Source: a virus
Lineage: Duplodnaviria > Caudoviricetes
Length of the DNA stretch: 60,473 nucleotides
Strand: one strand, 5' to 3'
Virus record (IMG/VR): IMGVR_UViG_3300043448_000474
Location: 1 to 60,473 of that record
This document shows, piece by piece, positions 3,353 through 60,473 of this stretch (within the stretch, counting starts at the first letter, position 1; each line of letters opens with the position of its first letter). The translations under genes were made by a program, and so were the position numbers. A model generated the notes under the pieces. That model was given only the letters and a program-made list of their open reading frames with translations. It had not been told where the DNA came from and ran no database searches.

Positions 3353-3427
3353 GGCGGGGTGTAGCAGTGGTAGCTAGGCTGCCTCATAAGCAGACGGTCG
3401 GTGGTTCGATCCCACCCCCCGCTACCA
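3353..3427 (+). tRNA. tRNA with CAT anticodon (Met, initiator-like body), encoded CCA
   Basis: Acceptor GGCGGGG/CCCCGCT-A-CCA; D stem TAGC/GCTA; anticodon loop CTCATAA; T arm GGTGG-TTCGATC-CCACC. Confidence 0.93.
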
Positions 3428-3606: not shown

Positions 3607-4020
3607 ATGAAGGAAACGATCTCCGAGATGCTCAGTGCATTCCCCCCGTGCGTCATCCGACTACTCGCACGAGAGGGCAAGGGACGCGGGGCCAAGCGGC
3701 TCACGCATGAAGACATCGCCAAGCGCAGCGGGATATCTTACGAGAAGGTGCGTGACATCGCGGTGCTGAAGTCATGGGACAAGGTTGCAATCGCTGATGC
3801 GGACGCATTCATGCGAGGTTGTGGCGTTACACTCCGCAACCTTTGGCGTCACCGCTACTTCCTCCGCAGGTCGCTGGACCCTCGCAAGACCAGCAACCCG
3901 CTCTCGTTTACAAAGCGGCGGGGAGCAGCGCAGAAGCCGCCTTCGCCCGAGCTTTTGGTCGCAGCAGCCTTGAGCCGGACACGGCCGAAGACTTCGCGAT
4001 CCTCAGCTTCTTCGGCTTGA
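3607..4020 (+). CDS. HTH (XRE-like) DNA-binding protein
   Basis: LTHEDIAKRSGISYEKVRDIA helix-turn-helix pattern; 3' end overlaps the giant ORF convergently. Confidence 0.6.
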   Translation: MKETISEMLSAFPPCVIRLLAREGKGRGAKRLTHEDIAKRSGISYEKVRDIAVLKSWDKVAIADADAFMRGCGVTLRNLWRHRYFLRRSLDPRKTSNPLSFTKRRGAAQKPPSPELLVAAALSRTRPKTSRSSASSA

Positions 4021-10000: not shown

Positions 10001-12949
10001 GACAAGGCTGTCGTAATCTCGACCAGCAGCTTCGACGTCGAAGTCCCTGATATGTCCTTCGATTTCCGCATTGAGACGCAGCGACTCAGCGCCCTGCATC
10101 TGGCGAACAGCGGCCTCGATTGACAGGTACCGACGCTTGCCTTCCTCGGTCTGGTACAGGTTTGCGCGCTCCTCTTCGAGGTTCTCCTTGTCTCCTTCGT
10201 CGCCCTTGGACGCCCCCTCTATCGAGTCCTTGATGAACCCAAACATCGGGTCTTCGGCACCCTGGTTGATGAGCTCCTGAAGCGGGTCGACCTTGACAGG
10301 CTTCTCTTTGGCCTCGCGCTTCTTTTGCTCAGCCTTGACGTTCTTGTTCTCCTCCTTGGTGAGGAACGCGCCCTTCTTCTTGGTAAGCGGAACCTCGTCC
10401 TGAAGGTTGACACCGGCCTCGGATGACTGGGCTGTGCCGGTTTGGCCTTTGCCAATGCTGGTGATCTTGATGAACGGCACTCCGTCAACGATCTTGGAAA
10501 CGGTTCCATAGATCTTGGTCTGACCAATCAGCTTGTTGACCCGAACGTAGTCACCAACCTTTACCTCTTCGCCTTCTTGGTACCTCGGAGGAGTCGGCTG
10601 CTTGACGGTACTCGTTCCGGCAGATCCTTGTACCGCACCGGCTTGTCCTTCTGCATTTTGCGCAGAACCTTGGGGTTGTTGACCGCCAGAAACTTCCACT
10701 CCGCTTTGGACTTGATTGGCATTGGCTACTCCTTGGGTTTGGGCTGCTTGCGCGTTACCTGCCCCACCAGCCGCTTTGGCTTTGGAGGGCTCGATCTTGG
10801 GCGCAGGTGGCGCGACAGGCGCTTTATCTTGGGTGACACTGGTGGGTGCTTTGGTTGAGCGATTGCGAAGATCAGCAAGTCGATCCTTGTCTTTCTTTTT
10901 CGACAAACCGAACGCCTCGTCGGCGCTCTCAAGAGCCTCAAGCTCACGCTGTTCGGATTCCGACAACGCGCTCTGGGCTGGAGCAACAACTTGGGCTTGT
11001 GCTGAAACAGGAACCGGGGCCGCAACTGGGACACCACCCACAGGAGCAGCCCCGGTGTCCGCCGGTAGCGATGATTCAGTCGGCGGGGAAATCTTGGCAG
11101 CAGCCCTCTCGGAATCAGCCCTATCAGCAGCCGCCTTAGCATCGGCGGCAGCCTTATCTGCGGCAGCCTTTGCCTCTGCAGCGGCGCGTTCAGCAGCAGC
11201 TTTTCGCTCAGCGGCAACGCGAGCCTCCTCGGCACGAGCAGCGGCAGCAGCCTCGGCCTCCGCGAGCATGCGCTTTTCCTTCGCCACAGAATCGCGGATC
11301 CGCTGCATGATGTCGGAACCCTTGCCCGGCAAAGCAGGAAGGATGTCGCGTTGGCCAGGCCCAAAGCGGTCAGCCTGTGCAGCCTCAAGAGATGCAAGAG
11401 CCTGAGCCCCACCAGCAGCCTGTTGCCGCTGCGCATTGATGGCTTCGCGCTGCGATTGAGACTGCCTTGACTCCCTGATAGCCCCCATCGCCTCAGCTGT
11501 AAGATCGTTGTATGCGGCCGTGTCTTTGGCCCAACGATCAAGCCGGTTTCTGATGTCGATGACCGCGTTGACAGCGCCGGTTGGATCTTCGCGGCGCATG
11601 GCAGTGTCTGCGATCCTGCCAAGGAAAGTGGTGATCTCGCCGGACTGGTTCAGCAGGGAATCGCGTACTGACTGATCAACGTCATATCCGTTCTCAATCT
11701 GGTCCAGCGTGCTTCCGATCGAGATGATCGAGTTGCGCACCTGCGGGTTGACATTGAGACCGTAGATACGGTTCTCAAGGTAAGACGACGGCGCAGCAGT
11801 GGTAGCACCAGCCGCAGCACTCCTGGCGTCCGCCATGCTTTCGGACACAGCAAGGCTGCCAACGTCGTTCGGATTGATGCGAGAGGCAGGGTTCTGAGCC
11901 TCCTCGATACGCGCCCCGGTGTACGGCTGCAGACCGCCTTCGGCATTGATGCCCCGGAGAGGCTGAGGCGAAAGCTGGTCCTGAAGCGCAGCGGCGTACG
12001 GGCGCACGTCGCCAACACTGGCGACACCCTTACTGACTCCGCTCATCACACCGCCGGTAAGTCCGCCGCCTATCGCGGCTTCGGTCACTCTGCGAGAGAA
12101 CTCCTCCTCGGTTGGAAGTCGACCACCGGCAACAAACGGTGCAAGCGACGCAATCGCTTCCTGACCAGCCTCGGTCAAAGCCTCATCTCTAACACCCTTC
12201 AGCGCCTCGACACCAACATCTCGGAGCGCCTTGCGGAATGCCCCTCCGCCGCCGGACATTAGGTTTTGTAGTGCGCGAGACTCTCCTCCAAGGGCCTCAA
12301 GCGCAGCGGATCCAAGACCACCAGCAGCAGCAGTAGCTCGCTGACGGAATCCAGTCTGGCCAGTTTCATCGGTGATGTCCTGGTAGATCGCACCGGCCTC
12401 TTGCGGGAACGTCGTAATTACTGGCGCTAAAACGGCCGCAGCTTTCGAGCTAAGTCCGGCCGCCTTCAACCCACCAGCCACAGGGCCAGAGACGAGCAGC
12501 TGAGGAATCTGCTCTGCAAGCATTCGACCCGCATAACCAGCCACATCGCCAACATCCTGAATCTCGCTTATCGATCCAGGAGCAGTGCTCTCGATGCCAC
12601 CCATCTGAGAGAGCGCCTTGCCGTAGGCGTTGACGCTCTTTGAGGCGTCTCCAGGAAGAAGCATTGAACCGGCTGAGATCGCGCTCCCGGCCATATTGGC
12701 CATGCCACTTGCAACCCGGCGGCCAAGCTCAGACCGCATGAGTAACGGAATCTCAGGGTCGTTCTCGTATGCATCGAGAATGTCAGCCCTGGTCTGAGCC
12801 TCCGTCGCCTCCGCTCGAATCTGACCCTGCTTGGCGCGGAACTGTTGTCTGGCGATCGTCTTGTAAACGTCGTCGATTCCAGCATCAGTGATGTCGTCGG
12901 GCACCTCGACCGTCTGGTTGAGGTCGGGGAACTCAATGAACTTGGGCAT
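3908..12949 (-). CDS. Giant internal virion/ejection protein (3013 aa) with zincin-like HExxH domain
   Basis: Last gene of the virion operon; Ala/Gly-rich helical sequence; VMHEAVHAAT..EFISEALSN motif near 8950-9160; hydrophobic segment near the C-terminus; very basic tail. Confidence 0.75.
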   Translation of the reverse strand: MPKFIEFPDLNQTVEVPDDITDAGIDDVYKTIARQQFRAKQGQIRAEATEAQTRADILDAYENDPEIPLLMRSELGRRVASGMANMAGSAISAGSMLLPGDASKSVNAYGKALSQMGGIESTAPGSISEIQDVGDVAGYAGRMLAEQIPQLLVSGPVAGGLKAAGLSSKAAAVLAPVITTFPQEAGAIYQDITDETGQTGFRQRATAAAGGLGSAALEALGGESRALQNLMSGGGGAFRKALRDVGVEALKGVRDEALTEAGQEAIASLAPFVAGGRLPTEEEFSRRVTEAAIGGGLTGGVMSGVSKGVASVGDVRPYAAALQDQLSPQPLRGINAEGGLQPYTGARIEEAQNPASRINPNDVGSLAVSESMADARSAAAGATTAAPSSYLENRIYGLNVNPQVRNSIISIGSTLDQIENGYDVDQSVRDSLLNQSGEITTFLGRIADTAMRREDPTGAVNAVIDIRNRLDRWAKDTAAYNDLTAEAMGAIRESRQSQSQREAINAQRQQAAGGAQALASLEAAQADRFGPGQRDILPALPGKGSDIMQRIRDSVAKEKRMLAEAEAAAAARAEEARVAAERKAAAERAAAEAKAAADKAAADAKAAADRADSERAAAKISPPTESSLPADTGAAPVGGVPVAAPVPVSAQAQVVAPAQSALSESEQRELEALESADEAFGLSKKKDKDRLADLRNRSTKAPTSVTQDKAPVAPPAPKIEPSKAKAAGGAGNAQAAQTQGVANANQVQSGVEVSGGQQPQGSAQNAEGQAGAVQGSAGTSTVKQPTPPRYQEGEEVKVGDYVRVNKLIGQTKIYGTVSKIVDGVPFIKITSIGKGQTGTAQSSEAGVNLQDEVPLTKKKGAFLTKEENKNVKAEQKKREAKEKPVKVDPLQELINQGAEDPMFGFIKDSIEGASKGDEGDKENLEEERANLYQTEEGKRRYLSIEAAVRQMQGAESLRLNAEIEGHIRDFDVEAAGRDYDSLVRKWLQTNLEQAEYQKFSPRSAAELALRNAIKRRAVDKATVSLSSGTDLDGQETSPIEQIAASETGSETSAAPVGTASQPSSASVSLFTLIKDKVALARIISNAVAAAEKVAKGRLTPVQFTDAVVQGMVDMLDLSSEGASKNAQLVRVVTDMGEAASGDLQELYDEGGIPAITEAITDGTIDSTLAANAGAPNTGNQLLQQGEFTLSDAIDTVLQNEPQGSLLRSIAAKLLSSRVTARVVVLPDADFGLLGAKEGATAFYDSNPDANIIYVRQSAQSHDYLVMHEAVHAATVNALRTNVQFRNEIRNLRSQAISALGQDSYALQNHGSNFKDLAEFISEALSNSQFQEALRSVPASQNESLWDRFKNLVAKLLGITKEQSSVFDRVMNLATDNFSPNVAGGEGILYAAPRIDSDQKRQALLSVPGLQMDNVRAIERLAATQAQMVPQSAVTMIGAASNRLQRRLAFLLRQAAASPNPAPISSFAVANPTYGDVEELAELSHGVDKVAREIEARSEKAEKRLADLQQQFNNIGSLRAELNTAKGNLAAIKAVGESMLDDYSEYLRSRFELAGKLTLAERGAISAAAEVVRKIRTESNNMRSAMETMAEKIPASVINAATSNADILNYVVSNKVLDAGVDQNTINFLTTQSAGGKTPLESFRRLIPAIKLIQKLKTDKSALDNAIDAYENAFAAARGNKTRTVSPRMFGKAFASMDAKRREALEQVRLLNSQINSLVKRVTDAQDEVSIYDEILKSPEYKDQVETAIKQLNILTGGHTEGGAEGNPTPRKLTFQVGSDPKNRFEINYTADPAENEKNKSTVLAALVAIDNELQNTDNPYEIFKLKWMQTKLARYSHQMTDAALGINPFDIINRVRVWIPLLTPLIDRMFIFRQIPGAMGSQARLLAKVGMSMSSQIEAARKHPVYGEAAINNAAQDAIDSHPGIDPQVWDKEVLNELLGGNQERTGRNMRVGETTIFGHKITAEDLKAAQLQSRFADALYRVAKGAERGGITMYFPTLVQETYVVNGQQRIRFRYAYAGGALTTPRSYDLGELDTDPFKMSDVWIKAEVPNDPAATQAAREALLQDPNFLTRFAVAHVAEMNPEYDRTSPFNEVYRQLADQYAKTGKYPTTFDELVDDINNQLPLPPPADRALKIKTQLIGEITEFIKAYRNDLIGAAANDPNAVLRTDALSAGLVGGIITSAANNFTKPRGAMIAPTNFYTYTLSSDSSRGSIAHGVMLPLRRKQIESMQNIQAALVELQKRLSKDVKGAKSVRDKLTLEFVTGKKRVTAKQAYVTNWQLKELIEQMRNSIETLQTTIAKPVLGSGQTTFFEDVLQLRRVALVAQAVAAIVNYSQAVMSGQFVPRTYLAGYKPRMIVTESIAGAVKAAFNTAAYIASSNKPVSSWIIANRNAMIPLMRQFASTVDQIQKMKAKARFDGFGADELSLKEQAAIIRKVGSYDSPVEGFNDSKGMMSSGMDKLFSKWWFPRIALAIQNIPATADRAANILTMIQVDKALNDVMRSGYSIMENRSQSGSTGWDNWTDPANAISEAEAAQAGWSKETLIRMRQAFSGMGGLEVVLHDFWKRVNAAKAAGKDINDVPPIADEGFYMDVTREMLGLSNAAMDSMRPDLLRSRTAMSRIYNFIFTFTSWVNGWFSTLGSLVGVDRTRGTLNTAAISGLSIALLMVMLGMSGMWTNELRGMMYELVKGRPFPVIRLGDVLRDANPASVAKLFGASIALMIPYAGESVANALGAQSYRTSLTDIANLSQPLQLVNTFSDALMSGSKTGDWTGTFTQLLRSTVPGSDMLINRLPSTRARDEVNDAARVARVAAGPLELADKGGGGGGAQPTKFSNLVKRAEAAMSAGDQAGAQRLLQEAAEEKKKQGGKDPWGSVRSAIQSRSVDTRTFGRKLTEDEKQGLMSRMSDSQRATYMRAEETHSKLASLVPRAGERGGMEKVGGKPTTAIDRVNRRIMRVRKATQPRALRALNKKIKAIKPKKLRIAKSSAVSGSRLLRPKARAKAASALLPAAL

Positions 12950-19790: not shown

Positions 19791-20267
19791 TCAGTTTTCT
19801 TTGAGCACTTCTGGTGTGAAGGCGTTAAGTGTCTCCGGTGTATCGTACGCCGACATGTCAATCAACGTAACGTCGCGGAGAAGTTTTTTCTTGGCGGTGA
19901 TCTCCGCAACCTGTGCGGCATTCCCCTCCTCCAAACTCCGCATGAACTCCACGTCGAGCTTTTCCAGGAGGGGTTTTCTAATGGTTCGGAAATGCTTGCG
20001 CTTGAGATCGTCTGCGGCCGACTTGCTCCATGTTACTGCACCACCTGGAGTCAGTCGCCACGCCTCAAAGAAGAGGTTCATTCCATTCAGGCTTGAGGAG
20101 TCCACTATGAATGACTGCCGCACCGATCCGTCTGGCAGCTGCGGCACGTCATTTTTCTGAACCCAGGCGGCGATCTGCAGTTCTTGCTCTGCCGTGATGT
20201 CGGCAGGATAGCATGGGGTTGCCACGCTCACCCACCCGTCGTCGTTAGTGTATATGATTACTTTCAT
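19791..20267 (-). CDS. Tail fibre assembly-like protein
   Basis: Directly after the long fibre; R.PLLEKLDVEFMR..KKKLLRDVT motif. Confidence 0.7.
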   Translation of the reverse strand: MKVIIYTNDDGWVSVATPCYPADITAEQELQIAAWVQKNDVPQLPDGSVRQSFIVDSSSLNGMNLFFEAWRLTPGGAVTWSKSAADDLKRKHFRTIRKPLLEKLDVEFMRSLEEGNAAQVAEITAKKKLLRDVTLIDMSAYDTPETLNAFTPEVLKEN

Positions 20268-23200
20268 TATGCTGCTATAAATGCAACTCCGATTGATACG
20301 CTGTCGTATAGAGTTGCGTTTCCTGGATATTCACATGCAATGCGGCAACTTCCGGTTGCCTTAGCTCCCGAACGACGCGGTATTCCAATATACAGGTTGT
20401 AATTCGATGAGTTGTTTGTCGTGTCAAGTTGTGCGTACCCAGAAACAACGTAGTTGGTATTTGCCAGTGCGCTGGAAAAATTAACAGTGTAGTCTCCGGT
20501 GGCGTTTTTTGTAATGCTGCTTACGTTGAACGATGCATTTGGGCTCTGAGAGCTCGCAAAATTGCCATTGAACTCACACCACGCCACAACTCGCCCACCG
20601 ATCGTGGTAGTCAGGTTTCCTGCGGCACGGGTCAACGTGAGCGTTCCTGCCGATATTCCGACTGCAGTGGTGTCCCGGTTCTCGTAGTAGGACGCTGCCT
20701 GGCCGTTCAGTTGAGTTGAGTTTGTGGCGCTAGACGCGGACGATGCGCTACCAGCCGAGTCCGCATAAGATACGCTGCAACCAGCGTGGACAGTATCGTT
20801 GCTGTAGTATCCATCTAGTCTCCAGTACGTCCCGGTCCAGTAGTTCTGGACGCTGTACGCATCGTTTGCATCTCGGCGGTATAGACGGTACGGACCCGGA
20901 CGAGCAGCCGATGTCCACATTCCAGTCTGGCCAGTGATTCCGCTTGCAGCGACAGCACTTGCCGTAGCCGCGTTTCCAGAGCAGCTGGTTGAGCTACCCG
21001 AGATGTTCATCGTGTTGCCGCTCAACATGCTCGCCAGTGATGCCATGTTGATCTCGACCGGGGCCTGTGCCGCAGACGGGCTGCTGTTGCCGAGTACCGT
21101 GTACGCCGTTACGTTCTGGATCTTGGCGTATGTAACGACGCTATTGGCCAGTTTGGCCGTGGTGGAGACAGCGCCGTCAGCGATTCCGCTCGCCGTTGTG
21201 CATGTTGCGGCGTTTCCAGTACACGAGGCTGAGCTACCAGTGATGTTGATGCCCCAAGATCCTGAAGCTCCACCACCAGTCAGAGTTGGCGCGTAGCTGT
21301 TGTAGTTCCCGCTGTGTAGGTGCGCCCTCCACGCGGTAAACGTGCCGTTGTTAGCGCCGGTTCCTCCTGAATACGTCCTAGACCACAGCACCTCGTCGTA
21401 GTAGCTCATCGCCAACTGGAAGCCGTGGTCATTTCCAGTGTTGCTGTGCCTGACGTTGATCAGGTTGTACCACGTTGCGGTCGGAGAGTTGGTTGCTTGA
21501 TACCCTTGGTAAAACCCGGATGGCAGCGAGTTATTGAAGTTTGATATTTCAAGAATCAGGTTCTGATTCCCAGCCCATCCAGGCTTTACTGTAAACCCGT
21601 TCGTGGCAGTAGCCGCGTTGCCAGTGATGCTGATGCCCCACGTTCCAGACGCGCCAGTGCCTGTTAATGTTGGGGCGTAGTTATTGTAGTTTCCTCCGTG
21701 CAGGAGTTCATACCATGAAGTAAATGAACCACCCCAAACGCTTCTCAGCCACAAACGGTTGTTTCCTGCGCCTCCGACAATCTGCCAACCGTAACGAGAA
21801 GACCCGTTCGTGTAATGAACAGCCTGTATTCCAGTATGGTGTGATGAGTCTCCTGGGTTGTTTGCTGGGCTGCTCCACGAGTCAGTGAATCCGCTGCCCC
21901 AGTCGAATATTGAGTTCCAGTCGGTGGTTCCCCAACCCATGACGCCAGTCCAGTAATTGCTGTCACTGGTAAGGTTGGGCCTTGAGTTTGCCCACTTGGA
22001 CGTGATTCCAAGATGAGCCTTGGCCGTTGCGAAAGGTGCTTGCCTGATGTTCGCGTCGGTCGACATGAACACCGTGGTTGGCAACGAGTTGCCAATGCTT
22101 GCCTGATGAGTTCCGAAAGACGGGAAATTAATGTCTGTGACGCACCTGTTCCATGTCTGCCAACTTGAAGATGTCCATCCGCCACGGAACACAAGATCGT
22201 TTCCAGCGTGGCTGATGTAGACCTGAGCTCTTGCGTCCGATCCTGTTCCGAAGTTGATCAGTGTTCCGTACTTGTACGAGGCATTAGTCGGGAAGTTTGA
22301 GCTTCCGGTGCTGGTCGGGAGATTGAAGTTTTCCTGGTACATCTGGTGTACCGTCTGAGCGGTATTGCCAAACGTGTCCCAGTTTCCGTACCCAGGATGA
22401 CCAGCGGCGCGTAGGTATGTATTGTTGAGGTAGGACGTGTAGTTACCAGAGTGAATTACTGTTTGAGCAGTACCAGAAACAGTAGCGTACAATTCTCCGT
22501 TGATCGATTTTCTGAGATCCCAGCCATTGGATGTGTTAAGGAATCCGGTTCCACCGGAATCTCCGTATAGCATTCCGAACCACGAGCCTGTAGATCCATA
22601 CAAAGCTATTGCGGACGCACCGCTGTCGGCGCTTGTAGATTTCCATGCAATCCAGTTTGCGGAACCTGCAGATAGCTGCCTTGATCCGTTATTGAGACCA
22701 GCAGCATTTCCTCCAATACTTAGGTTTGGTGCGCTAGTTGTTGCAGATGTGAGGATCGTATTTCCTCCGACCAGCCATGCGGTCGCAGCGTTGGAGATGT
22801 CCACCGTGCTGTCCGCGCTGAAGTCGGTGATGTTCGTTGGCGTCGGCGCTGTGTTGATGTACGTGTACCCAACAGGAGGATTGCTGTTGAACGTAATCAG
22901 GCGCGATGTTGTGACGCGCACGTCAACATATGCGTAGTACCTAACATCGACGTAGATCGGCAGGTAGTAATGATTACCACTGACAAACTGCTCTGATCCA
23001 AGCACCACCTGAAAGTTGTTTTCCCCAGCACCGCTCATCTCGACCAGCTTTAGAAGCGGCCGAGTTCCTGAATACCCGTATGAGACAATGTACTTCTTCT
23101 TGAGTCCTTTGCTCCAATACTGCTCACACAGTTCAATTTCAAACGTGCCAACCTGGTTCCAGTTTACGATGTCGATCGCAATACGAGCGATCTCGAAGCG

Positions 23201-26200
23201 ACGCGCCTGAGTGGTTGATGCTGAGAGCGTGTCCCAGAAGAACTGCTTCACACGCTTGGTGTTGTCCACCGCGTAGCTGCTGTAGTTGCTCGCGTGGAGA
23301 ACTTGATTTCCGTTGATCGAAGCGTTTGAGAAGTACGCAGTCGCCGAATTGTAGTCGAACCTCAGGTACGTTCCGTCGAAGTACATTCCACGGCGCGTAG
23401 TCCAGTCGTTGCTGTTCGCTAGAGACCAGAACCCGTTGTTCTCACCAGCGATGTAGCAGCCGTCTATAAGGACGCCCATCTGCCCCGTGTTCGGCAAGTC
23501 CTGCCCAAACACAACTTCGCCGCCATTAGCACTGAACCCACCCCATCTCGATCCAGGTAGGCTTGCTCCGTACCACGATCCACCTCTTGGCAATGTGTAG
23601 TTGGTGTAGTTGTTGGCATCCAGGACGTTTGCACCCTTCCACTGAAGCGAAGCGTTTCCGCGATATGCGGTCAGCAGTGTGGTCCAAGACACCGCAGCGC
23701 CAACGGTTCCAGTTGCCGCGCTGTAAACCTGGATGCCATCCGCGAGGTCGATGCGTGTGACAGCATCAGCAATGGCGTAGGTATGAGAACCGGCAGTCGC
23801 GGTGTAGTTGATGCCGTAGCTGATGCCGCCGTAGTTTCCGCCAGAGTAGCCGATGCGGACAGCGCGTGGGTTTCCCGAGTTGGAGCCACTCCACGTAACA
23901 TCGCCGCTAAAATAGCCGCTTGTTCCAGAGAGACCTCCGGTGAGAGTGCCTCCAGAGCTTGAAAAGGCATCTGTGATTCCAAATCCTCCAAGCGTTGTTG
24001 GCTTACTTGTAATCCCAGACCACGCCACGTTGGTGGCAGTCGCAGCATTTCCGGTGCAGCTTGTTGAGCTTCCGACGATGTTCATCGTCTGGCCCGACAG
24101 CATTCCCGCAAGTGTCGCCATCGACAGGGCAGCAGGGGCTTGAGCTACTGAGGCGCTGCTGTTTCCAAGAACGCTCGATACTGCCACGTTCTGAATCTTC
24201 GCGTAGGTAACCGCTGAGTTTGCGATCGTCGCCGCAAACGAAAGATTGGCAGTGCCGTCAAAAGTGCCACTTGTTGCCGTGACATCTCCCGTAAGCGCGA
24301 TCGTCCTACCAGTAGCCCACCTTGCCGCACTGCCGCCGACGTTCAGACTGTTTGCGGTTCCGGTAAGCCCTGTCCCTGCACCGGTGAAGCTAGACCCAGA
24401 CACAGTTCCGGTTGCGCTGACGTTTCCTGGCAGCGTTAGATTTCCGTACAGCGTGATGTTCCGACTTCCATCCCAGTCATACACTCGGTTGAACGAGGAG
24501 TACCCGCCCATGATTCCGATGTGTCCGACAGAGATCGCGTTGTTCGGGTAACCGGACGGGCCGTTGTTTCCGATCAACTCGAACACCATCCGAACGTCGC
24601 GAGTGTCCCACCATCCGCTGACGTTGACGTGCGACGTGAACGTGTACCCAGGCCATGAACTGATTCCGTTTACCCTGTACGATTCAGCACCAAACACACC
24701 ATTCAGGTCGCTCTTGTAGAACACGAAGTTCATCGAGTGACCGTTGGTCGAGTGGCACAGTGTGAAGTGGGAGAAGAAGTGGTATCCGAAGTTGACCCAC
24801 GTCATCCGAACCTTGGTCCAAGCTCCGATGTTGGACCCGACGTTCATGTTGAACCCGCCCCACTTACCAAACACCTTCCCATCGAAAACGTCGCTGCTAA
24901 TCGTGGTTGCGACCCAATTTACTCCATCGACAGTGTACTCGACAGTTGTTGGAGGACGGAAAGCTATGAGGTTCTGAACAGAGTCAGTGCCCCACAGGCG
25001 CTGCATGTTTCCAGATCCGTAGATGTCGCCCTGCGTGAACCCATTTGGGTCCACCTGATACATCGCATCGGTGATGCCGTAGCCGGACAACGTCGTCGGC
25101 TTTCCGGTCACGCCTGACCAAGGGACCGCACCAGCAGTGAGGCTGCTCGCGGTTCCAGTGAGGCCAGTTCCAGCACCGCTGAAGCTGACCGCATTGATTC
25201 CGCCTGAGGCGTCACGCTGCGCAAGCCTGTTTGCCGTTGCTGCAGTGTCAGCGCCCACCGTGATTGTGCCACTTCCAGCACTAATTCCGATGCGAAGGCC
25301 GCCGCGAGCCTCGATAGGACTTTCAACGTATAGACCCGCTGTCTGACCAGTCTTCGGGAGGTAGAGTCCGTATGACGCGAAGTTTGCGACGTCATCTGTG
25401 GACTCGGATCTTATGCTGAGACGGCCGCCACCCTTGTATATTCCGTTGGTGGAATCCGTGAAGTACAGCGTTCCTGTAAGCGTCCCACCACTCAGCGGCA
25501 ATGCATCAGTGATTCCGTAACCACTCAGCGTGGTCGGTTTGCTAGTAATACCAGACCACGGAACTGACGAAGCAGATGCAGCGTTTCCTGTGCAAGATGT
25601 TGATGAACCGGATATGTTCATCGTCTGACCACTCAGCATCGTGGCCACCTGAGCAGCCGTGAGGTCGGACGGGCTATTTGCAACAGCACCATTGTTACCC
25701 TTGATGGTACCTGCGCCCATCGTGTTCAGCTTCGCATTTGTAATTGTGCTGTTTGGGATTGTAGTCGTAATAGCCGTTGTCCCTGTGCCCGTAACATCCC
25801 CAGACAGCGTGATGCTCTGGTTTCCGGTTAGGTAGCGACCATCGAGGCTGACCGTCAGATTGCCTGTAGCGCGAGTCAGCGTCAGTGTTCCACCAGAGAA
25901 TCCGACCGCTGTAGTGTCTCTGTTTTCATAGTACGCGCCATGTTGACCATCCAGCAGGTCAGAGTTCAGGTTTGTTACTGCTGTTGTTGAAGCAACCGAG
26001 AACGGCGCTGTTCCAGTTGCTACGCTGCTCGTGATTTGACTCGCAAATGTGGCTGAACCAGCAACAACCAGCTTTGCAAGTTTTTGCGTCCAATCAATAG
26101 TTGGCGCATATACCGTGCCGGTGGTTGACCCATTTGGAGGTGTGCCTGAAACGTAAGTAACTACTGTTCCAGAGTTTATAGTTGCCTCTGCTGTGTAAAC

Positions 26201-27529
26201 ATACGTCTGCCAATCAGCCAACTGACGGATCTGCAACTCGTACACTCCAAGTGCCGTTTTTACGACGCGCACATAATCCGAAACTGGTCCAGTAACCCAG
26301 GCGTCGTTGTACGAGTCCTGCACACCGCCGCTTCTGCGGCATGAGGCAAAAAACGTCATCGGGTAACAGTCAGAGTTCCACCCGAAATTGCCTTGGTTGT
26401 CTACTACATCTACACGAAAAGTGACTGCTCGGTATAACCCAACTCCGATAGTGATGTCGGCTATCTTCTTCCAGTTGAGATCCTGTCCACCACCGTAATA
26501 TACGGTGTATATTTGCTGACGGTTGCTGTACTGAACGGTAGTGGCAGCGTAAAACGCTCCGCCAGATGTAAGTGCAGAGTTTACAGTAAGGTTACCTGAC
26601 TTGGTCTGCGCAGTTGCCGAAGTGTCTAATGCGTCAGTTATTCCAAACCCCGCCAGAGTTGTCGGTTTGCTTGTTATTCCAGACCACGCCACATTAGTGG
26701 CTGTCGCGGCATTGCCTGTGCAGGAGGTCGAAGATCCGACGATGCTCATCGTCTGACCACTGAGCATTCCTGCTAGGGTGGCCATCGAAAGTTCCTGCGG
26801 TGCCTGTGCCACCGAGGCGCTGCTGTTGCCGAGCACGCTGGACACCGCGACGTTCTGAATCTTGGCGTAGGTGACTACAGAGGCGGCGATCTTCGCCGAG
26901 GTCGATACGGCACCATCAGCAATGTTTGTTGCGATCGCAGCGGTTCCGCCAATGTTCAACGCAGCAGCGGTTCCGGTAAGCCCTGTTCCTGGACCAGAAA
27001 AATTGGTCCCGGTAACCGTTCCAGTGAACGTCGAGTATCCTCCGTAGTTGGACGAGTCGAGCAGCTTTTTCCACGCGCCCCAGGTCGTGTTGCTACCGCT
27101 GCGCTGCCACACGTTCCCGTTGTCCGTGAACCCAAGCTGGTGAGACGACCCGCCGGTCCAGTCAGTGCCGCTACCGTACTGGCGGAACGTCAACAGTCCG
27201 AAGTAGTTTCCGCCGTCGTTTAGTCCGTTCGACGAGTTCGCCTTGAAGTCGAAGACGACACCCCTGTTGATGGTCTGAGGGGTTGTCGCATCATCGCGCG
27301 TGTCGGCCACGAAAACAGCGTACGAATACCCAGTGACTGAAATGGGGTAACTCCCAGAAAGACGCCCAGCAGCGAGAGTCCCGGTGAAGTTGGCGCAGTC
27401 GAGGTAGTAGGCCCCGTGCTGACCGTCTAAAAGGTCAGCGTTGAGGTTTATGACGGCTGCGGTCTGGTTGACCGTGAACGGGGGTACACCCGCTGCGGTG
27501 ACGATCTGCAGTTGGCTCTCAAACTTCAT
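20267..27529 (-). CDS. Long tail fibre/adhesin (2420 aa)
   Basis: Thr/Gly/Ser/Ala-rich; LNADLLDGQHG; repeated WSGITSKPTTL.G.GITDA and GNAATAT shaft motifs; several knob-like domains. Confidence 0.88.
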   Translation of the reverse strand: MKFESQLQIVTAAGVPPFTVNQTAAVINLNADLLDGQHGAYYLDCANFTGTLAAGRLSGSYPISVTGYSYAVFVADTRDDATTPQTINRGVVFDFKANSSNGLNDGGNYFGLLTFRQYGSGTDWTGGSSHQLGFTDNGNVWQRSGSNTTWGAWKKLLDSSNYGGYSTFTGTVTGTNFSGPGTGLTGTAAALNIGGTAAIATNIADGAVSTSAKIAASVVTYAKIQNVAVSSVLGNSSASVAQAPQELSMATLAGMLSGQTMSIVGSSTSCTGNAATATNVAWSGITSKPTTLAGFGITDALDTSATAQTKSGNLTVNSALTSGGAFYAATTVQYSNRQQIYTVYYGGGQDLNWKKIADITIGVGLYRAVTFRVDVVDNQGNFGWNSDCYPMTFFASCRRSGGVQDSYNDAWVTGPVSDYVRVVKTALGVYELQIRQLADWQTYVYTAEATINSGTVVTYVSGTPPNGSTTGTVYAPTIDWTQKLAKLVVAGSATFASQITSSVATGTAPFSVASTTAVTNLNSDLLDGQHGAYYENRDTTAVGFSGGTLTLTRATGNLTVSLDGRYLTGNQSITLSGDVTGTGTTAITTTIPNSTITNAKLNTMGAGTIKGNNGAVANSPSDLTAAQVATMLSGQTMNISGSSTSCTGNAASASSVPWSGITSKPTTLSGYGITDALPLSGGTLTGTLYFTDSTNGIYKGGGRLSIRSESTDDVANFASYGLYLPKTGQTAGLYVESPIEARGGLRIGISAGSGTITVGADTAATANRLAQRDASGGINAVSFSGAGTGLTGTASSLTAGAVPWSGVTGKPTTLSGYGITDAMYQVDPNGFTQGDIYGSGNMQRLWGTDSVQNLIAFRPPTTVEYTVDGVNWVATTISSDVFDGKVFGKWGGFNMNVGSNIGAWTKVRMTWVNFGYHFFSHFTLCHSTNGHSMNFVFYKSDLNGVFGAESYRVNGISSWPGYTFTSHVNVSGWWDTRDVRMVFELIGNNGPSGYPNNAISVGHIGIMGGYSSFNRVYDWDGSRNITLYGNLTLPGNVSATGTVSGSSFTGAGTGLTGTANSLNVGGSAARWATGRTIALTGDVTATSGTFDGTANLSFAATIANSAVTYAKIQNVAVSSVLGNSSASVAQAPAALSMATLAGMLSGQTMNIVGSSTSCTGNAATATNVAWSGITSKPTTLGGFGITDAFSSSGGTLTGGLSGTSGYFSGDVTWSGSNSGNPRAVRIGYSGGNYGGISYGINYTATAGSHTYAIADAVTRIDLADGIQVYSAATGTVGAAVSWTTLLTAYRGNASLQWKGANVLDANNYTNYTLPRGGSWYGASLPGSRWGGFSANGGEVVFGQDLPNTGQMGVLIDGCYIAGENNGFWSLANSNDWTTRRGMYFDGTYLRFDYNSATAYFSNASINGNQVLHASNYSSYAVDNTKRVKQFFWDTLSASTTQARRFEIARIAIDIVNWNQVGTFEIELCEQYWSKGLKKKYIVSYGYSGTRPLLKLVEMSGAGENNFQVVLGSEQFVSGNHYYLPIYVDVRYYAYVDVRVTTSRLITFNSNPPVGYTYINTAPTPTNITDFSADSTVDISNAATAWLVGGNTILTSATTSAPNLSIGGNAAGLNNGSRQLSAGSANWIAWKSTSADSGASAIALYGSTGSWFGMLYGDSGGTGFLNTSNGWDLRKSINGELYATVSGTAQTVIHSGNYTSYLNNTYLRAAGHPGYGNWDTFGNTAQTVHQMYQENFNLPTSTGSSNFPTNASYKYGTLINFGTGSDARAQVYISHAGNDLVFRGGWTSSSWQTWNRCVTDINFPSFGTHQASIGNSLPTTVFMSTDANIRQAPFATAKAHLGITSKWANSRPNLTSDSNYWTGVMGWGTTDWNSIFDWGSGFTDSWSSPANNPGDSSHHTGIQAVHYTNGSSRYGWQIVGGAGNNRLWLRSVWGGSFTSWYELLHGGNYNNYAPTLTGTGASGTWGISITGNAATATNGFTVKPGWAGNQNLILEISNFNNSLPSGFYQGYQATNSPTATWYNLINVRHSNTGNDHGFQLAMSYYDEVLWSRTYSGGTGANNGTFTAWRAHLHSGNYNSYAPTLTGGGASGSWGINITGSSASCTGNAATCTTASGIADGAVSTTAKLANSVVTYAKIQNVTAYTVLGNSSPSAAQAPVEINMASLASMLSGNTMNISGSSTSCSGNAATASAVAASGITGQTGMWTSAARPGPYRLYRRDANDAYSVQNYWTGTYWRLDGYYSNDTVHAGCSVSYADSAGSASSASSATNSTQLNGQAASYYENRDTTAVGISAGTLTLTRAAGNLTTTIGGRVVAWCEFNGNFASSQSPNASFNVSSITKNATGDYTVNFSSALANTNYVVSGYAQLDTTNNSSNYNLYIGIPRRSGAKATGSCRIACEYPGNATLYDSVSIGVAFIAA

Positions 27530-56779: not shown

Positions 56780-57600
56780 CGAGATTCCAAGCGAGGCTGA
56801 TCAGCGATATGTGCCAGAACGCGTCGGAACTGAAACAGTTCCACAAGGCGTACACGGCGCTTCTCAATAGCTGCAGCGACACGGTGTTGCAGAAGCCAGT
56901 TGTCCACGCGACTCCGCAGCCGACCGTGACGGTTAGCACCACCGGCACGACACCGCCACCGCCCAGCACACCTAAGCCACTGGGACCGGAATGGTGGAAG
57001 GAGCGTCAGGCCGAAGCCATCAAGGAGCAGATCGAGATCATTGCCGACCAGAACAAGAAGATCGCGGAACTGCAGAAGCAGGTTGAAAAGTTGGAGATCC
57101 AACAGTGTGTTGACGCCAAGACGATCAAAGACCTCAAGGCGAGCCAGGCGGCTAGTGTGACTGCATCTAGCCAGATCCTCGGTGCGCTCAATGAAAGCGG
57201 CCTGAGGCAGTACGACGGCTCGTTGGCTGACAACGTCGTCGATGTGATCAAGCAGTGTGTCGTTCAGGGGAAGCAGATTCATGTGATGAACAAGGATCTG
57301 ATCAGGAAGGACAAGGAGATCGGGAAGCTCACGCAGTGGCACGCAGACTCCATCGATCAGGTCAACAAGCTCGGCAGAGAGTTAGGACAGAAGATCCAGG
57401 AGAACGAGCGCCTCAAGAAGGAACTGGAGGTGGCAGGTAAGAAGCAGAAGGCCATCATCAAAGCCGGGAACGATCTGAAGTATCTGCTGAGAGACGTATT
57501 CCCCGACGACTACCCGCTTATGTACGGCTGCGTTTCATACTGCACGCACTACATCTCTCTCTGGGACGACAACACCGCCCCACAATCATCCGCAGGTTGA
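56776..57600 (+). CDS. Coiled-coil hypothetical protein
   Basis: 274 aa with long heptad stretches. Confidence 0.65.
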   Translation: MTRFQARLISDMCQNASELKQFHKAYTALLNSCSDTVLQKPVVHATPQPTVTVSTTGTTPPPPSTPKPLGPEWWKERQAEAIKEQIEIIADQNKKIAELQKQVEKLEIQQCVDAKTIKDLKASQAASVTASSQILGALNESGLRQYDGSLADNVVDVIKQCVVQGKQIHVMNKDLIRKDKEIGKLTQWHADSIDQVNKLGRELGQKIQENERLKKELEVAGKKQKAIIKAGNDLKYLLRDVFPDDYPLMYGCVSYCTHYISLWDDNTAPQSSAG

Positions 57601-57861
57601 AGACTCACCTGCCGGTTTAGAACGCCGGTACCCATCCTTCCAAAGCTGCTTGGCCAGGAAGGTGGCGTACCGGCTGATCTTCTTCTCGGACCAATCTGGA
57701 CACGCCATGTGCAGAAGCTCATGCACCAACGTGTCCAGACGACTCTCCTCTGGCTGGAACGGATGGATCTTGATCAGCGCCTTCGAGTAGAAACACATCC
57801 CCCAAGCCCTCTCCTTACCCAGATCCTCCTCCACGATCCTCACCTTCTTGGGAAGCGCCAT
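57586..57861 (-). CDS. Small HExxH (zincin-like) protein
   Basis: AWGMC..IKIHP..LDTLVHELLH. Confidence 0.7.
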   Translation of the reverse strand: MALPKKVRIVEEDLGKERAWGMCFYSKALIKIHPFQPEESRLDTLVHELLHMACPDWSEKKISRYATFLAKQLWKDGYRRSKPAGESSTCG

Positions 57862-58866
57862 GCACAGATAAGATCCCCTCCACACACCACATTCAAACCC
57901 AAGTCGCAAATAGAGCTTGACGAGATTCGCTGATCCCCCCTTAACATACCCCCACACCCAGTCAGCATGGATAGTGTGGAGGTGACCAGTCACCAAAAGG
58001 ACTCGGCCCTAGCCGAGGCCAGTAGGTATCCCCAACACCAGCCATAAGGCGATCCCCAGGCCATCCGCCAGGGCGCATATCCCCCGCCCCACAGCACAAA
58101 TCACCACTCAGGGGGGAGGGGTCAATTCGGTGCAAATACACATTCGGAGACAGGAGCACCGGGTTAGCCGCTGACTCTAATTGATAAAGCGGGGCGAGAG
58201 TTGAGAAGGGGGGTACCCCATATCCCCATGATGGTTTTGGCCGAACCCCGCTATACCCCCCCCCGCACGCGCGAGACAGTACGCGCACGCGGTATTGGTC
58301 GCGTCGCACGCGTTCTACTTTGAAAAGGGAGGGTTGCGCCATTGGAAGCAACCTATGGCGAGAAACGGAGGGGATCGACAATGGGAGGTGTCGGTTGTTC
58401 TTTCAAATCAAACGGTTCGGCAAGGGGCGAAAGCTCCGGCGGTCAACAGCTTCGGGCTCGGACCTCGGCACCTTGGGGTGTCGGGTAGCCCAAGGGGAAA
58501 GGTTCCCCAAGCGCCGTCGGTTATTCACGCAAAAGACCTTGGGACGGACTAGAGGCTCCGGGCAGCTACACGCCCGTGTTATGCGCGACGATACCGGATC
58601 CACTCCGGGACTCGGACCTGCGCCACCCCTGATCTTCGGTTGTGGATTCGGCGGGGTGGAGTGGCAGCCGACGGCGGGGCGCAGAGAAAAGGCAGGAATC
58701 ATCGGCCTTGGGTTACTGTTCAACCCGAAAGCATCCTTGCCATGCCCCAACACTACCGGGGTTTGGTGGACCAAAACAGCGTGTCAGACGGTACGTCAAC
58801 CCGTTTCACTCCCCGGATCCGTTGGATCCGTTTGCCTTTGGGGCTCCGGTTGGAGCCTCCGAGGTT

Positions 58867-58961
58867 ACCCTAGACGCAAGCGGCGTCCTCGTCGCCTAGG
58901 GTGTCCACCGTGCGGTTTATTCTGTCCCGATTGGGTCAGGCCGTCACGGGCCAACGCTTGC
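58867..58961 (+). ncRNA. HDV-like self-cleaving ribozyme
   Basis: P1 ACCCTAG/CTAGGGT; P2 GCAAGCG/CGCTTGC; P3 GCG/CGC; L3 TCCTCGT; P4 CCGTG..CACGG; J4/2 GCCAA. Confidence 0.85.
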
Positions 58962-58975
58962 AACTCTGTAACACT

Positions 58976-59389
58976 ATGTCCACCTGCACCGCCGTCGCCA
59001 CGCTGCCCTCCACCTCCACCCCGATCCTCGGAGCCAAGGGGCGCACCCTCGGAACCCGGTATTTCATCGGCACCGAGAGCGCCAAGTCCCTGAAGGAGAC
59101 CGGGAAGTCCCTTGGTCTTCGTGGCAATGCCCTGAAGGATTATGTCAACAAGGCCCTGTCCGATGAGTCTGCGGCCCGTGCTGCCACCGTTGCGGCCACC
59201 GTGTCGGCCCTCGCTTCCAAGGGGTTCGTGGCCGACACCGTCGACGTGCGCAAGTCCTCTGCCCAGATCAAGTTTGTGAAGCCCGAGGCCCCGAAGGGTC
59301 CGTCGGACTCCATGCGCACCCTCGCGGAGAAGCTGGTTGCGTCTGGCAAGTTCGCCTCGGTCGATGAGGCCCTCGCGTTCCTCGCCTGA
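58976..59389 (+). CDS. Early hypothetical protein (137 aa) between HDV-like and hammerhead ribozymes
   Basis: ATG 15 nt after the ribozyme end; strongly C/G-biased third positions; Ala/Lys-rich. Confidence 0.75.
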   Translation: MSTCTAVATLPSTSTPILGAKGRTLGTRYFIGTESAKSLKETGKSLGLRGNALKDYVNKALSDESAARAATVAATVSALASKGFVADTVDVRKSSAQIKFVKPEAPKGPSDSMRTLAEKLVASGKFASVDEALAFLA

Positions 59390-59451
59390 TCGCCCGTCCG
59401 CCGCACTGATGAGACCGGAAGGTCGAAACCCCGCAAGGGGTCTGCGGATCA
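59387..59451 (+). ncRNA. Type I hammerhead ribozyme
   Basis: Stem I CCGCA/TGCGG; core CTGATGA; stem II GACC-GGAA-GGTC; GAAA; stem III CCCC-GCAA-GGGG; GTC cleavage triplet. Confidence 0.95.
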
Positions 59452-59501
59452 CGCAACGCCTATGCCCCGAGCGTTCAATCGGGGCTTCTGTGTTTCACTC
59501 C

Positions 59502-59699
59502 ATGACCAAAATTGACCTGTTGTGCCAAGAGCTCTTGAAGTCTGGAAGAATTACCATCGATGAAGCTCTCGGCCTTGGATCGTCGGTTCGTGCCCTTGCG
59601 CTTAACCTTACCGAGGTTGAGGTGCGCCAACGATACGGAACGTGGTCCGTAGATGCGGCAATGGAATGGATGTTGCCGGTGACTCCTCGGGATTCGTAA
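59502..59699 (+). CDS. Small hypothetical protein (65 aa) between hammerhead and twister
   Basis: MTKIDLLCQELLKSGRITIDEALGL..; TCACTCC-ATG leader shared with neighbouring genes. Confidence 0.6.
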   Translation: MTKIDLLCQELLKSGRITIDEALGLGSSVRALALNLTEVEVRQRYGTWSVDAAMEWMLPVTPRDS

Positions 59700-59766
59700 T
59701 TCGCAGAGTGACGGGGCTTCTGGCCCCGGTAATGCGGCACGCTGGTCACAAGCCCAGCGACGTTCC
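59689..59766 (+). ncRNA. Twister ribozyme (type P5 permutation)
   Basis: P2 CGCA/TGCG; GAGTGA; P1 CGGGGC/GCCCCG closed by a loop; TAA; P4 CGCTGG-TCACAAGC-CCAGCG; pseudoknots TCAC/GTGA and GC/GC. Confidence 0.88.
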
Positions 59767-59811
59767 TCGTTCCGTTCCCGTCCGGTTGGCGGGTTTCATT
59801 CGTTCACTACC

Positions 59812-60198
59812 ATGGCAAACTACTACGGAGTTGGCCGCAGCAACTACTTCAAGGTCAAAGACCCTGCGGCATTCATGAAGTTCATCGAGGCGTTCGACTG
59901 CAAAGTTGTCCCCAAGGGCGACACGTTCGCCGTCCTGTCTAACGCCGAAGACGGCAGCTTCATGAGCTACCCGGATGACAGCGATTCACTCTGCATCGTC
60001 GATGGCATTCACGAGCACCTGCAAGAGGGTGAGGTCGCTGTCTTCTTAGAGTGCGGCCACGAGAAGCTGCGCTACGTCGGCGGCAGAGCCATCGCCGTCC
60101 ATAGCAGCGGCAAGCAGACGTGGCTCCACCTCTCCGACATCTACGCCAAGGCCAAGGAAGCCTTCGGCGTCGCTGAAATCACCCTCGCTGAATACTGA
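59812..60198 (+). CDS. Early hypothetical protein
   Basis: MANY..RSNYFKVKD..EKLRYVGG; 128 aa. Confidence 0.75.
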   Translation: MANYYGVGRSNYFKVKDPAAFMKFIEAFDCKVVPKGDTFAVLSNAEDGSFMSYPDDSDSLCIVDGIHEHLQEGEVAVFLECGHEKLRYVGGRAIAVHSSGKQTWLHLSDIYAKAKEAFGVAEITLAEY

Positions 60199-60205
60199 TC
60201 ACTCC

Positions 60206-60473
60206 ATGAACTCCTACGCATCACTCATCACCGCCCTCATGGCCGTCGAGACCGGCGGTCAACGCAACCCCGACATGGCCGTCGGTGACGGTGGCCGCGC
60301 CATCGGTGCCCTTCAGATCCACCGCTCTGTGGTGAAGGACGTGAACCACTTCTACGGCACGTCCTATCGCTGGGAAGGCATGACAAACCGTGCCGATGCC
60401 CGGAGGGTCTGTGACCTCTACCTTGGCCACTACGCCAAGGGCAAGTCGCTCCAAGACGCCGCACGGATATGGA
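60206..60473 (+). CDS. Lysozyme-like protein (i-type/destabilase or transglycosylase-like), 3'-truncated
   Basis: Not in the ORF track; MNSYASLITALMAVETGG..AVGDGGRAIGALQI..DAARIW, with a catalytic-type Glu and G.LQI. Confidence 0.7.
   Translation, partial: MNSYASLITALMAVETGGQRNPDMAVGDGGRAIGALQIHRSVVKDVNHFYGTSYRWEGMTNRADARRVCDLYLGHYAKGKSLQDAARIW

Follow-up and report, generated by a model that had tools for sequence, protein, structure and literature searches.

A probable HDV-like ribozyme in the 5' leader of a phage gene, at the head of a hammerhead and twister array

The stretch of DNA analysed here (the window) is the whole of the linear IMG/VR record IMGVR_UViG_3300043448_000474, 60,473 bases long and 95% complete according to CheckV. 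Its plus strand carries, at 58867-58961, an element which, judging from the sequence comparisons presented below, is a real conserved RNA and very probably a ribozyme akin to that of hepatitis delta virus (an HDV-like ribozyme), and which would represent a new lineage of this known family. We consider it likely, with a probability of about 0.72, that this ribozyme is active and cuts at 58866/58867, so that the messenger RNA (mRNA) of the gene that follows (gene 1) has a folded 5' end with a 5'-hydroxyl group (5'-OH) 14 nucleotides (nt) before its AUG, and that it is the first element of an array of HDV-like, hammerhead and twister ribozymes.

Fold and conservation of the element

A previous examination of this DNA, made from the letters alone (the sequence-only reading), had described a nested double pseudoknot at this place. 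The present analysis finds all of its pairings, and the element is identified by reading of the sequence, by a descriptor and by a covariance model (R1, 113.8 bits). P1 joins 58867-73 (ACCCTAG) to 58896-902 (CTAGGGT) by 7 Watson-Crick pairs, and is followed by J1/2 (AC, 58874-75) and by P2, in which 58876-82 (GCAAGCG) forms another 7 Watson-Crick pairs with 58955-61 (CGCTTGC). The three pairs of P3 (GCG, 58883-85, with CGC, 58893-95) close the loop L3 (58886-92, TCCTCGT). When A58867 is numbered +1, L3 begins at position 20, and U58886 and G58891 become U20 and G25, the same position numbers as those of the U20/G25 pair in PMC13635239. P1.1 has a single Watson-Crick pair, C58888-G58903, its second juxtaposition being C58887/U58904. 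P4 occupies 45 nt (58905-49), with 58908-16 paired to 58940-49 in the nested fold and a distal stem formed by 58922-28 and 58933-39. J4/2 (58950-54, G-C-C-A-A) contains the putative general acid C58951, and the 3' strand of P2 comes directly after it. The scissile bond is predicted, by analogy with the family, to lie between U58866 (-1) and A58867 (+1). All 17 pairs of P1, P2 and P3 are Watson-Crick in the window, and likewise in the 4 full-length relatives described below. The nested double-pseudoknot topology of the HDV family is present (P1 of 7 bp, P2, P3 of 3 bp, L3, P4 and J4/2), as are a putative catalytic cytosine of J4/2 followed by 2-3 nt ending in A and then by the 3' strand of P2, and, in L3, a U...G pair placed near the active site together with cytosines for P1.1.

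Our own HDV-type descriptor required a P1 of 7 bp, a P3 of 3 bp, an L3 of 6-9 nt containing C, a G after P1, a J4/2 of the form C-N-R-A and a P2 of at least 6 bp. Over both strands of the window it gave one match, which is 58867-58961. To count as equally good, another match had to have 7 bp or more in P2, with both P1 and P2 free of G-U. Out of 400 dinucleotide shuffles of the window, 21 contained a loose match and none an equally good one, and 950,902 bases of unrelated natural loci contained 7 loose matches, again with none as good. The descriptor match by itself is only moderate evidence, suggestive but not decisive, since shuffled and natural DNA also give loose matches; the weight therefore rests on conservation and covariation.

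Relatives were sought with the gene 1 protein and with core-only DNA patterns, and the element was found in 5 further IMG/VR contigs (L001/L013, L002/L035, L014, L044 and L042, the last of which is truncated by the contig end). The window and the four full-length relatives form the alignment A3 (5 sequences), in which 99.3% of the 150 pair cells hold standard pairs and 7 pairs are changed on both sides. None of 500 column shuffles reached the observed compensation, and six slid controls gave none. Three of the compensatory pairs are in P1 and four in the distal stem of P4, and there is one additional one-sided change in P1. The P1 strands ACCCUAG/CUAGGGU of the window become ACCCAUC/GAUGGGU in L044, and in L002 the A at +1 is replaced by a G opposite U, which gives the canonical G.U. 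In L044, the 45-nt P4 is swapped for a 5-bp hairpin with the core unchanged, reducing the element to 69 nt from 95; this fits the HDV-like family, because P4 is dispensable in it. Within L3, U20, C21, C22, C24 and G25 are invariant in A3 (position 23 is U or A), J4/2 is G-C-C-A-A in 5/5 sequences, and U-1 is identical in 6/6 sequences. A natural variant, C58955T, converts the inner pair of P2 from G-C to G.U, and the same change is implied by the gene 1 homolog P0002. A further relative, known only from a loose end in run X4, carries GCCCGTC where the window has the 5' strand of P1.

The covariance model R1, built from A3, scores the members at 61.7-119.3 bits, with one copy per phage record, and 59 bacterial or archaeal loci with the same 20-nt core at no more than 30.5 bits. 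J4/2 followed by the 3' strand of P2 was found in 0 of these 59 core-bearing stretches. In core-only scans, full P1 and P2 pairing was seen in 3 of 34 stretches in one set and 1 of 22 in another, all of them from this phage group. The core motif alone arises by chance, and only in this phage group is it accompanied by the complete fold. Pattern scans of viral contigs, in which the core was fixed and P1, P2, P3 or P4 was freed in turn, gave no member outside this group, a pattern scan of genome contigs gave no further member, and a protein-guided scan of metagenome contigs returned only L038, which lacks the ribozyme element.

Genomic setting of the ribozyme

Gene 1 (58976-59389, plus strand) encodes 137 amino acids (aa), has 17 homologs in a large protein collection, and its start is conserved among them. 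It belongs to no PHROG or Pfam family; its AlphaFold2 model has a predicted local distance difference test score (pLDDT) of 67, and a Foldseek search of BFVD gave 0 matches at E <= 0.001. The proposal that the ribozyme forms the 5' untranslated region (UTR) of this gene is borne out to the extent that gene 1 is real, conserved and located downstream of the element in relatives as well, the distance between the ribozyme and the ATG of the gene 1 homologs being 13-18 nt in the 4 relatives that run past the element. In the window, with the ATG at 58976, there are 14 nt between the ribozyme end and the start codon. The start of gene 1 is indeed without a Shine-Dalgarno (SD) sequence, but this is the usual state in the phage, for the anti-SD duplex energy of the open reading frames (ORFs) of the window has a median of -2.5 kcal/mol and is at or below -6 in only 10/57 of them. 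The missing SD is therefore no argument by itself for ribozyme-assisted translation. That most predicted genes of the phage lack one suggests a host in which SD pairing is largely dispensed with in translation initiation. In other assemblies, gene callers placed the start of three gene 1 homologs (P0002, P0007 and P0009) too far upstream, at a GTG within P4, so that the ribozyme is read through, and public protein sets therefore hold spurious N-terminal extensions which are translated ribozyme. For the distant homolog L038, the region 1-700 contains a palindromic hairpin downstream of the stop codon and no Rfam ribozyme at E <= 1.

Gene 1 had also been called the first early gene. It is the first plus-strand ORF after an ORF-free stretch of about 980 nt, which follows a divergent, weakly ImmA-like gene. 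However, there are 0 sigma-70-like promoters in 57500-60473 and the linear, 95% complete record gives no true genome end, and the name is still a hypothesis. An argument from genome ends was considered, as in the one related contig that is complete, with repeats at its termini, the ribozyme is located about 440 nt from an end; it was rejected because the assembly breakpoint of a terminal-repeat contig is arbitrary.

Immediately upstream of the ribozyme there are two hairpins on the plus strand. Hairpin 1 (58814-58830) has a 7-bp stem, a GTT loop and a T-rich tail, and is terminator-like; hairpin 2 (58834-58865) has an outer stem of 5 bp and an inner one of 8 bp, with a GGTT loop, and stops one nucleotide short of the cut site, where U58866 (U-1) alone is unpaired. 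The stem of hairpin 1 covaries in 5 relatives, which keep its G-T-rich loop, and the equivalent of hairpin 2 adjoins the ribozyme in L044, L001, L002, L014 and L042. Across the six phages, the stems of the paired hairpins covary and the loops stay G-T-rich (GTT, GTC, GGTT, GTTT), and every member has a stable hairpin whose end is 1-3 nt away from the cut site on the upstream side. No second such hairpin pair was found elsewhere in the window. Hairpin 2 might be an insulating helix which keeps the upstream RNA from mispairing with the ribozyme, and after cleavage it would be the stable 3' end of the upstream fragment. Further upstream lies a stretch of about 870 nt which is poor in ORFs and poorly conserved except for patches. 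One of these, at 58196-58316 (plus strand), is a conserved non-coding block common to L013, L042 and L044, made up of a 30-nt motif (GAGAGTTGAGAAGGGGGGTACC...) followed by repeated units of the CACGCGG type; among its possible roles are those of operator, origin and unusual promoter. The G-T-rich loops of 3-4 nt, together with an ORF of 3013 aa in the window, were considered as a sign of single-stranded promoter hairpins of an N4-like virion RNA polymerase. The idea was dropped as unsupported: that ORF has no polymerase match in PHROG, Pfam or PDB sequences, and it is only at this place that such hairpins come in a pair.

Downstream of gene 1, and on the same strand, the array continues, so that three ribozyme classes bracket two tiny genes within 900 nt. 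A type I hammerhead-like ribozyme (59401-59447) begins 11 nt after the stop codon of gene 1. It has a CUGAUGA core (C-U-G-A-N-G-A), the GAAA, a cut site of the U-H type (GUC, with a predicted cut after C59442) and the three stems, of which stem I is CCGCA/UGCGG and stem II is GACC/GGUC, stem III completing them. A hairpin with a U-rich tail (59464-59485), which is terminator-like or 5' stabilising and is conserved in L014, precedes gene 2 (59502-59699, 65 aa), which lies between the hammerhead and the twister. The latter is a Twister-P5 ribozyme (59702-59757; Rfam RF02684, 61.8 bits against a gathering cut-off of 37.6, E 1.8e-10), which begins 2 nt beyond the gene 2 stop codon and covers model positions 1-58. 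A second hairpin, with a T-rich tail (59777-59793), precedes gene 3 (59812-60198, 128 aa).

All 5 related records that reach far enough have a hammerhead after gene 1, which is of type I in four and of type III in one (L044); its positions include 833-881 in L014, 3413-3472 in L001 and 944-999 in L044, and in 4/5 records the best hammerhead match is the one just after gene 1. Stems I and II show compensatory changes, and the core is common to L014 and L044; in the hammerheads of L001 and L002, the core heptamer is followed by one more U. In L044/G004, the same slot is taken by a type III hammerhead with 45.4 bits (E 1.3e-10, cut-off 48.5), and the presence of a different hammerhead topology at the same position argues that cleavage at this slot is what is selected. 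The twister scores above its cut-off in 3/5 records (the window, G002 and G003) and in 0/14 control genomes. G002 and G003 repeat the order HDV-like, hammerhead, twister, and G001 ends shortly after its hammerhead. Each of the two terminator-like hairpins at 59464-85 and 59777-93 sits between a downstream ribozyme and the next start codon, and genes 2, 3 and 4 have a common CACU(A)CC-AUG start context without SD. In one freshwater metagenome strain (run X11; window 59487-59697), 212 other letters replace the 209 bases of gene 2, and the replaced or divergent region is flanked by a kept hammerhead and a kept twister. This looks like a cassette exchange, or else a strong divergence bounded by ribozymes.

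The source of the window is read as a temperate tailed phage, because it encodes an integrase (1444-2622, plus strand), a single-stranded DNA-binding protein (SSB, 2650-3123), a gene with weak similarity to ImmA/Peptidase_M78 and a weakly ImmA/IrrE-like metalloprotease motif, HELLH (57586-57996, minus strand), a tRNA-Met (3353-3427), a terminase and a portal protein. The tRNA-Met is the sole tRNA of the window and lies 55 kb away from the ribozyme, which is accordingly not at the 3' end of a tRNA, as had been stated earlier. The records containing the stretch come mainly from freshwater metagenomes, and GenBank phage records gave no match to the DNA of the window and none to the gene 1 protein. 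An integrase is present and the ImmA-like gene, on the minus strand, is divergent from the block formed by the ribozyme and gene 1; the ribozyme array may adjoin a lysis-lysogeny switch region. Two giant ORFs are found on the minus strand: the one of 3013 aa (3908-12949) has no PHROG, Pfam or PDB-sequence match, and for the one of 2420 aa (20267-27529) the matches are limited to a tail-fibre-like one at the C-terminus and a single DUF5907 repeat.

Proposed mechanism and alternative explanations

Extrapolating from the family, the RNA would fold co-transcriptionally into the nested double pseudoknot, in which C58951 of J4/2 would be the general acid and the U58886/G58891 pair of L3 would have a metal ion close by, and the chain would be cut between U58866 and A58867. 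The upstream RNA would then end in the hairpin 58834-65 plus one U carrying a 2',3'-cyclic phosphate, and the gene 1 mRNA would begin with a 5'-OH on an intact ribozyme fold, 14 nt before an AUG without SD. The hammerhead cut after C59442 would set the 3' end of the gene 1 mRNA, also with a cyclic phosphate, and the twister would separate gene 2 from gene 3, whose mRNAs would start at the hammerhead and the twister cuts, respectively, with the hairpins 59464-85 and 59777-93 preceding the AUGs. One primary transcript would in this manner yield discrete mRNAs, with ends and expression independent of the transcription start and of the upstream leader. RNases which sense a 5'-monophosphate or triphosphate handle structured 5'-OH ends poorly, and the proposed ends would be poor substrates for 5'-end-dependent RNases. 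That the ribozyme sets and protects the 5' end of the mRNA and may affect translation, as the sequence-only reading had it, is a reasonable inference. A broader and more tentative suggestion, which we hold to be possible rather than likely, is that the conserved array of three classes makes promoter-independent mRNAs, that the 5' folds some 13-20 nt before the SD-less AUGs serve both as an RNase-resistant "cap" and as a landing structure for nearly leaderless initiation, and that the ribozymes mark cassette borders.

Several observations weigh against these proposals. The G.U wobble at the cleavage end of P1 is absent in the window, where the first pair is A-U; this is also the case in L001, L014 and L044 (4/5 full-length sequences in total), the truncated L042 has A at +1, and the G.U is seen only in L002. 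The second P1.1 pair is C/U, leaving one Watson-Crick pair. Both of these atypical points had been noticed earlier and are confirmed. P2 (7 pairs) and P3 (3 pairs) show no variation in the 5 sequences and are therefore neither supported nor contradicted by covariation; what speaks for them is complementarity, plus the one G.U variant. The covariation counts represent few independent events, because only 5-6 closely related phages carry the element. The nested minimum free energy (MFE) fold, at -40.5 kcal/mol (z = -2.34, with 3/200 shuffles folding equally well; these energies cover nested folds, pseudoknotted ones lying outside the scoring), favours over P2/P3 a rival 6-bp helix of 58880-85 with 58890-95, which uses 3 nt of P2 and most of L3, and in which P1 is lengthened by U58866.G58903. 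That the active fold would have to outcompete this helix is a genuine concern. The Rfam HDV-type models gave no match at E <= 10 on 1.9 kb (8 matches, none HDV-type), and none at E <= 5 on the whole window (5 matches, none HDV-type). Rfam HDV models capture little outside their seed lineages and, to our knowledge, cannot represent the pseudoknot. With regard to the array, the hammerhead of the window scores 21.6, 16.8, 15.7 and 17.3 bits, below the gathering cut-offs of 34-56, those of the related records are also below the Rfam cut-offs, and control genomes likewise give sub-threshold hammerhead matches. The distant gene 1 homolog of L038 (36% identity) has no HDV-like element upstream, and the gene 1 family therefore does not need the ribozyme. 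Finally, no RNA dataset is among the listed holders of the stretch, and the four runs compared were all in the form of contigs, which cannot show RNA ends. Two contigs from runs labelled RNA-Seq, but probably of DNA, were given no weight: one of 213 nt starts at 58868, one base past the predicted 5' end, and one of 151 nt (58838-58988) is uncut across the site.

Some of these points would also be expected if the element were a conserved structured 5' UTR that does not cleave, having the delta fold or only its nested part (P1 with P3 or the alternative helix, and P4) and a protective or regulatory function, for example by stabilising the 5' end, by binding a protein or as a translational operator. 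The lack of covariation in P2 and P3, the preference of the nested MFE for the alternative helix, the absence of an Rfam HDV match, the A-U first pair with a weak P1.1, and the uncut 151-nt contig, although it is probably DNA, are all compatible with it. We nevertheless consider this explanation unlikely, as it leaves unexplained the invariance of the catalytic hallmarks (J4/2 C-N-A-A followed by P2, U20/G25 and U-1), the perfect complementarity of the P2 3' strand, 60-90 nt away, in spite of a swapped or shrunken P4, and the fact that the next two intergenic elements are self-cleaving ribozymes.

A further explanation, which we regard as improbable, accepts an active ribozyme and places its main function in the 3' end of the upstream RNA. 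This RNA would be a non-coding leader or small RNA (sRNA) of about 0.6 kb, starting near 58196-58316 and ending in hairpins 1 and 2; alternatively, the element would be a timing or attenuation device with terminator-like hairpins. After HDV-type cleavage the whole of the upstream RNA is a molecule of its own, the ORF-poor stretch of about 870 nt contains the conserved block 58196-58316, and the two conserved hairpins, the first of them terminator-like, end exactly at U-1. The tight spacing of 13-18 nt to the gene 1 AUG in 4 members and the strict linkage to gene 1 homologs point instead to the downstream gene, and the upstream region is poorly conserved apart from patches. The upstream-RNA and the downstream-mRNA roles are not mutually exclusive. 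It is hardly credible that the element is a chance resemblance, or that it belongs to a longer coding sequence in which gene 1 is extended at its N-terminus from GTG 58901/58910. Some gene callers did annotate such a start (the extensions of P0002 and P0007 run through P4, J4/2 and P2), and natural GC-rich DNA gives about 7 loose descriptor matches per 0.95 Mb. Yet no shuffle or background match is as good, the compensatory changes preserve helices and not codons, most homologs start at the ATG, and the L044 element is shorter by 26 nt, a number that three does not divide, and its spacer is another one, so that no common reading frame survives in it.

Cleavage at 58866/58867 by an HDV-like ribozyme remains the preferred explanation. 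If it is true, the 5' end of an mRNA from a prokaryotic virus can be set by an HDV-like ribozyme, and the effects of structured 5'-OH ends on mRNA stability or translation become open to direct tests. If the array is read correctly, HDV-like ribozymes join hammerhead and twister ribozymes in the context of phage genes, giving that context a testable function. What self-cleaving ribozymes do in bacteria and phages is described as largely elusive (PMC6765202), and the locus is a compact natural test case for their roles in phages, its natural variants (shrunken P4, swapped P1 pairs, exchange of a type I for a type III hammerhead) constituting a mutational series. For synthetic biology, it offers a candidate for an insulator part of natural origin.

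Comparison with known ribozymes

The element shares with the HDV-like ribozymes of Ackermannviridae phages and Caenorhabditis briggsae (PMC13635239) the pseudoknot of P1, P2, P3, P1.1 and P4 with a cut at the 5' end of P1, the J4/2 cytosine followed by the 3' strand of P2, and U20/G25 in L3. In that work, G25 pairs with U20 beside the active site and the G25A change abolishes activity, as does a C-to-U change of the J4/2 cytosine. The weak C/U second pair of P1.1 is like the one in the ribozyme from C. briggsae, which has C:U at this position, while the Ackermannviridae phage ribozyme has U:U, and both are fast (PMC13635239). The U at -1 is the fastest base at this position for the genomic HDV ribozyme (PMC1874588). 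A non-G first nucleotide and a P1.1 of 1 bp are also features of the ribozyme of the L1Tc retrotransposon (L1TcRz), which begins with C1 and is active (PMC3185411). An A-U first pair with a single P1.1 pair therefore need not cripple activity, and the earlier suggestion that the element is slow, like CPEB3-type ribozymes, is weakened by the example of L1TcRz and by the G.U of L002. The present element differs from the known HDV-like ribozymes in that it has no Rfam score and mostly an A-U first pair, heads a hammerhead/twister array, has a P4 of 45 nt in most members and of 5 bp in one, and lies 13-18 nt before a start codon.

Like the theta ribozymes (PMC10879173), it is an HDV-like ribozyme encoded by a tailed phage, in non-coding DNA and in the same sense as the neighbouring genes. 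Those ribozymes are without P4, mostly follow tRNAs and come from gut Caudoviricetes, and the phage HDV-like ribozymes that are not near tRNAs are listed as being of unknown function, most of them more than 200 nt from an ORF (PMC10879173). The present element, in contrast, has a P4, is not adjacent to a tRNA, comes from freshwater and directly precedes a protein gene.

In its position, the element resembles ribozymes of 5' leaders. Those found in 5' UTRs of the retrotransposons R2 and L1Tc likewise free a coding RNA from a co-transcript and stay on it as a structured 5' UTR, and they have been proposed to act in the initiation of translation (PMC3185411, PMC6765202); they belong, however, to eukaryotic retroelements with cap-independent translation, and the present element to a prokaryotic double-stranded DNA phage. 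An HDV-like ribozyme is also found upstream of glmM in Faecalibacterium prausnitzii (PMC6765202). Both are HDV-like elements of the bacterial world in the 5' leader of a protein gene, but glmM is a chromosomal metabolic gene with a suspected control by metabolites, whereas gene 1 is a phage gene in a ribozyme array.

Clusters of hammerhead and twister ribozymes (also with twister-sister, pistol and hatchet) occur near phage-like genes in bacteria, and an unproven proposal is that they process polycistronic mRNA (PMC6765202, PMC8782182). The present locus resembles them in having several ribozyme classes within 1-2 kb between small phage genes. The excerpts of the literature mention no HDV-like ribozyme that belongs to a hammerhead/twister cluster or forms a phage gene's 5' UTR, though the primary cluster paper and supplementary hit lists could contain one. 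The locus is set apart from these clusters by having an HDV-like ribozyme as the first member of its array. A last comparison is with an engineered part, RiboJ, which is an insulator placed between a promoter and a gene and consists of a hammerhead-type satellite ribozyme and a hairpin. The present element would similarly free the 5' end of an mRNA, and its expression, from the upstream sequence, with the difference that it is natural and has the delta fold.

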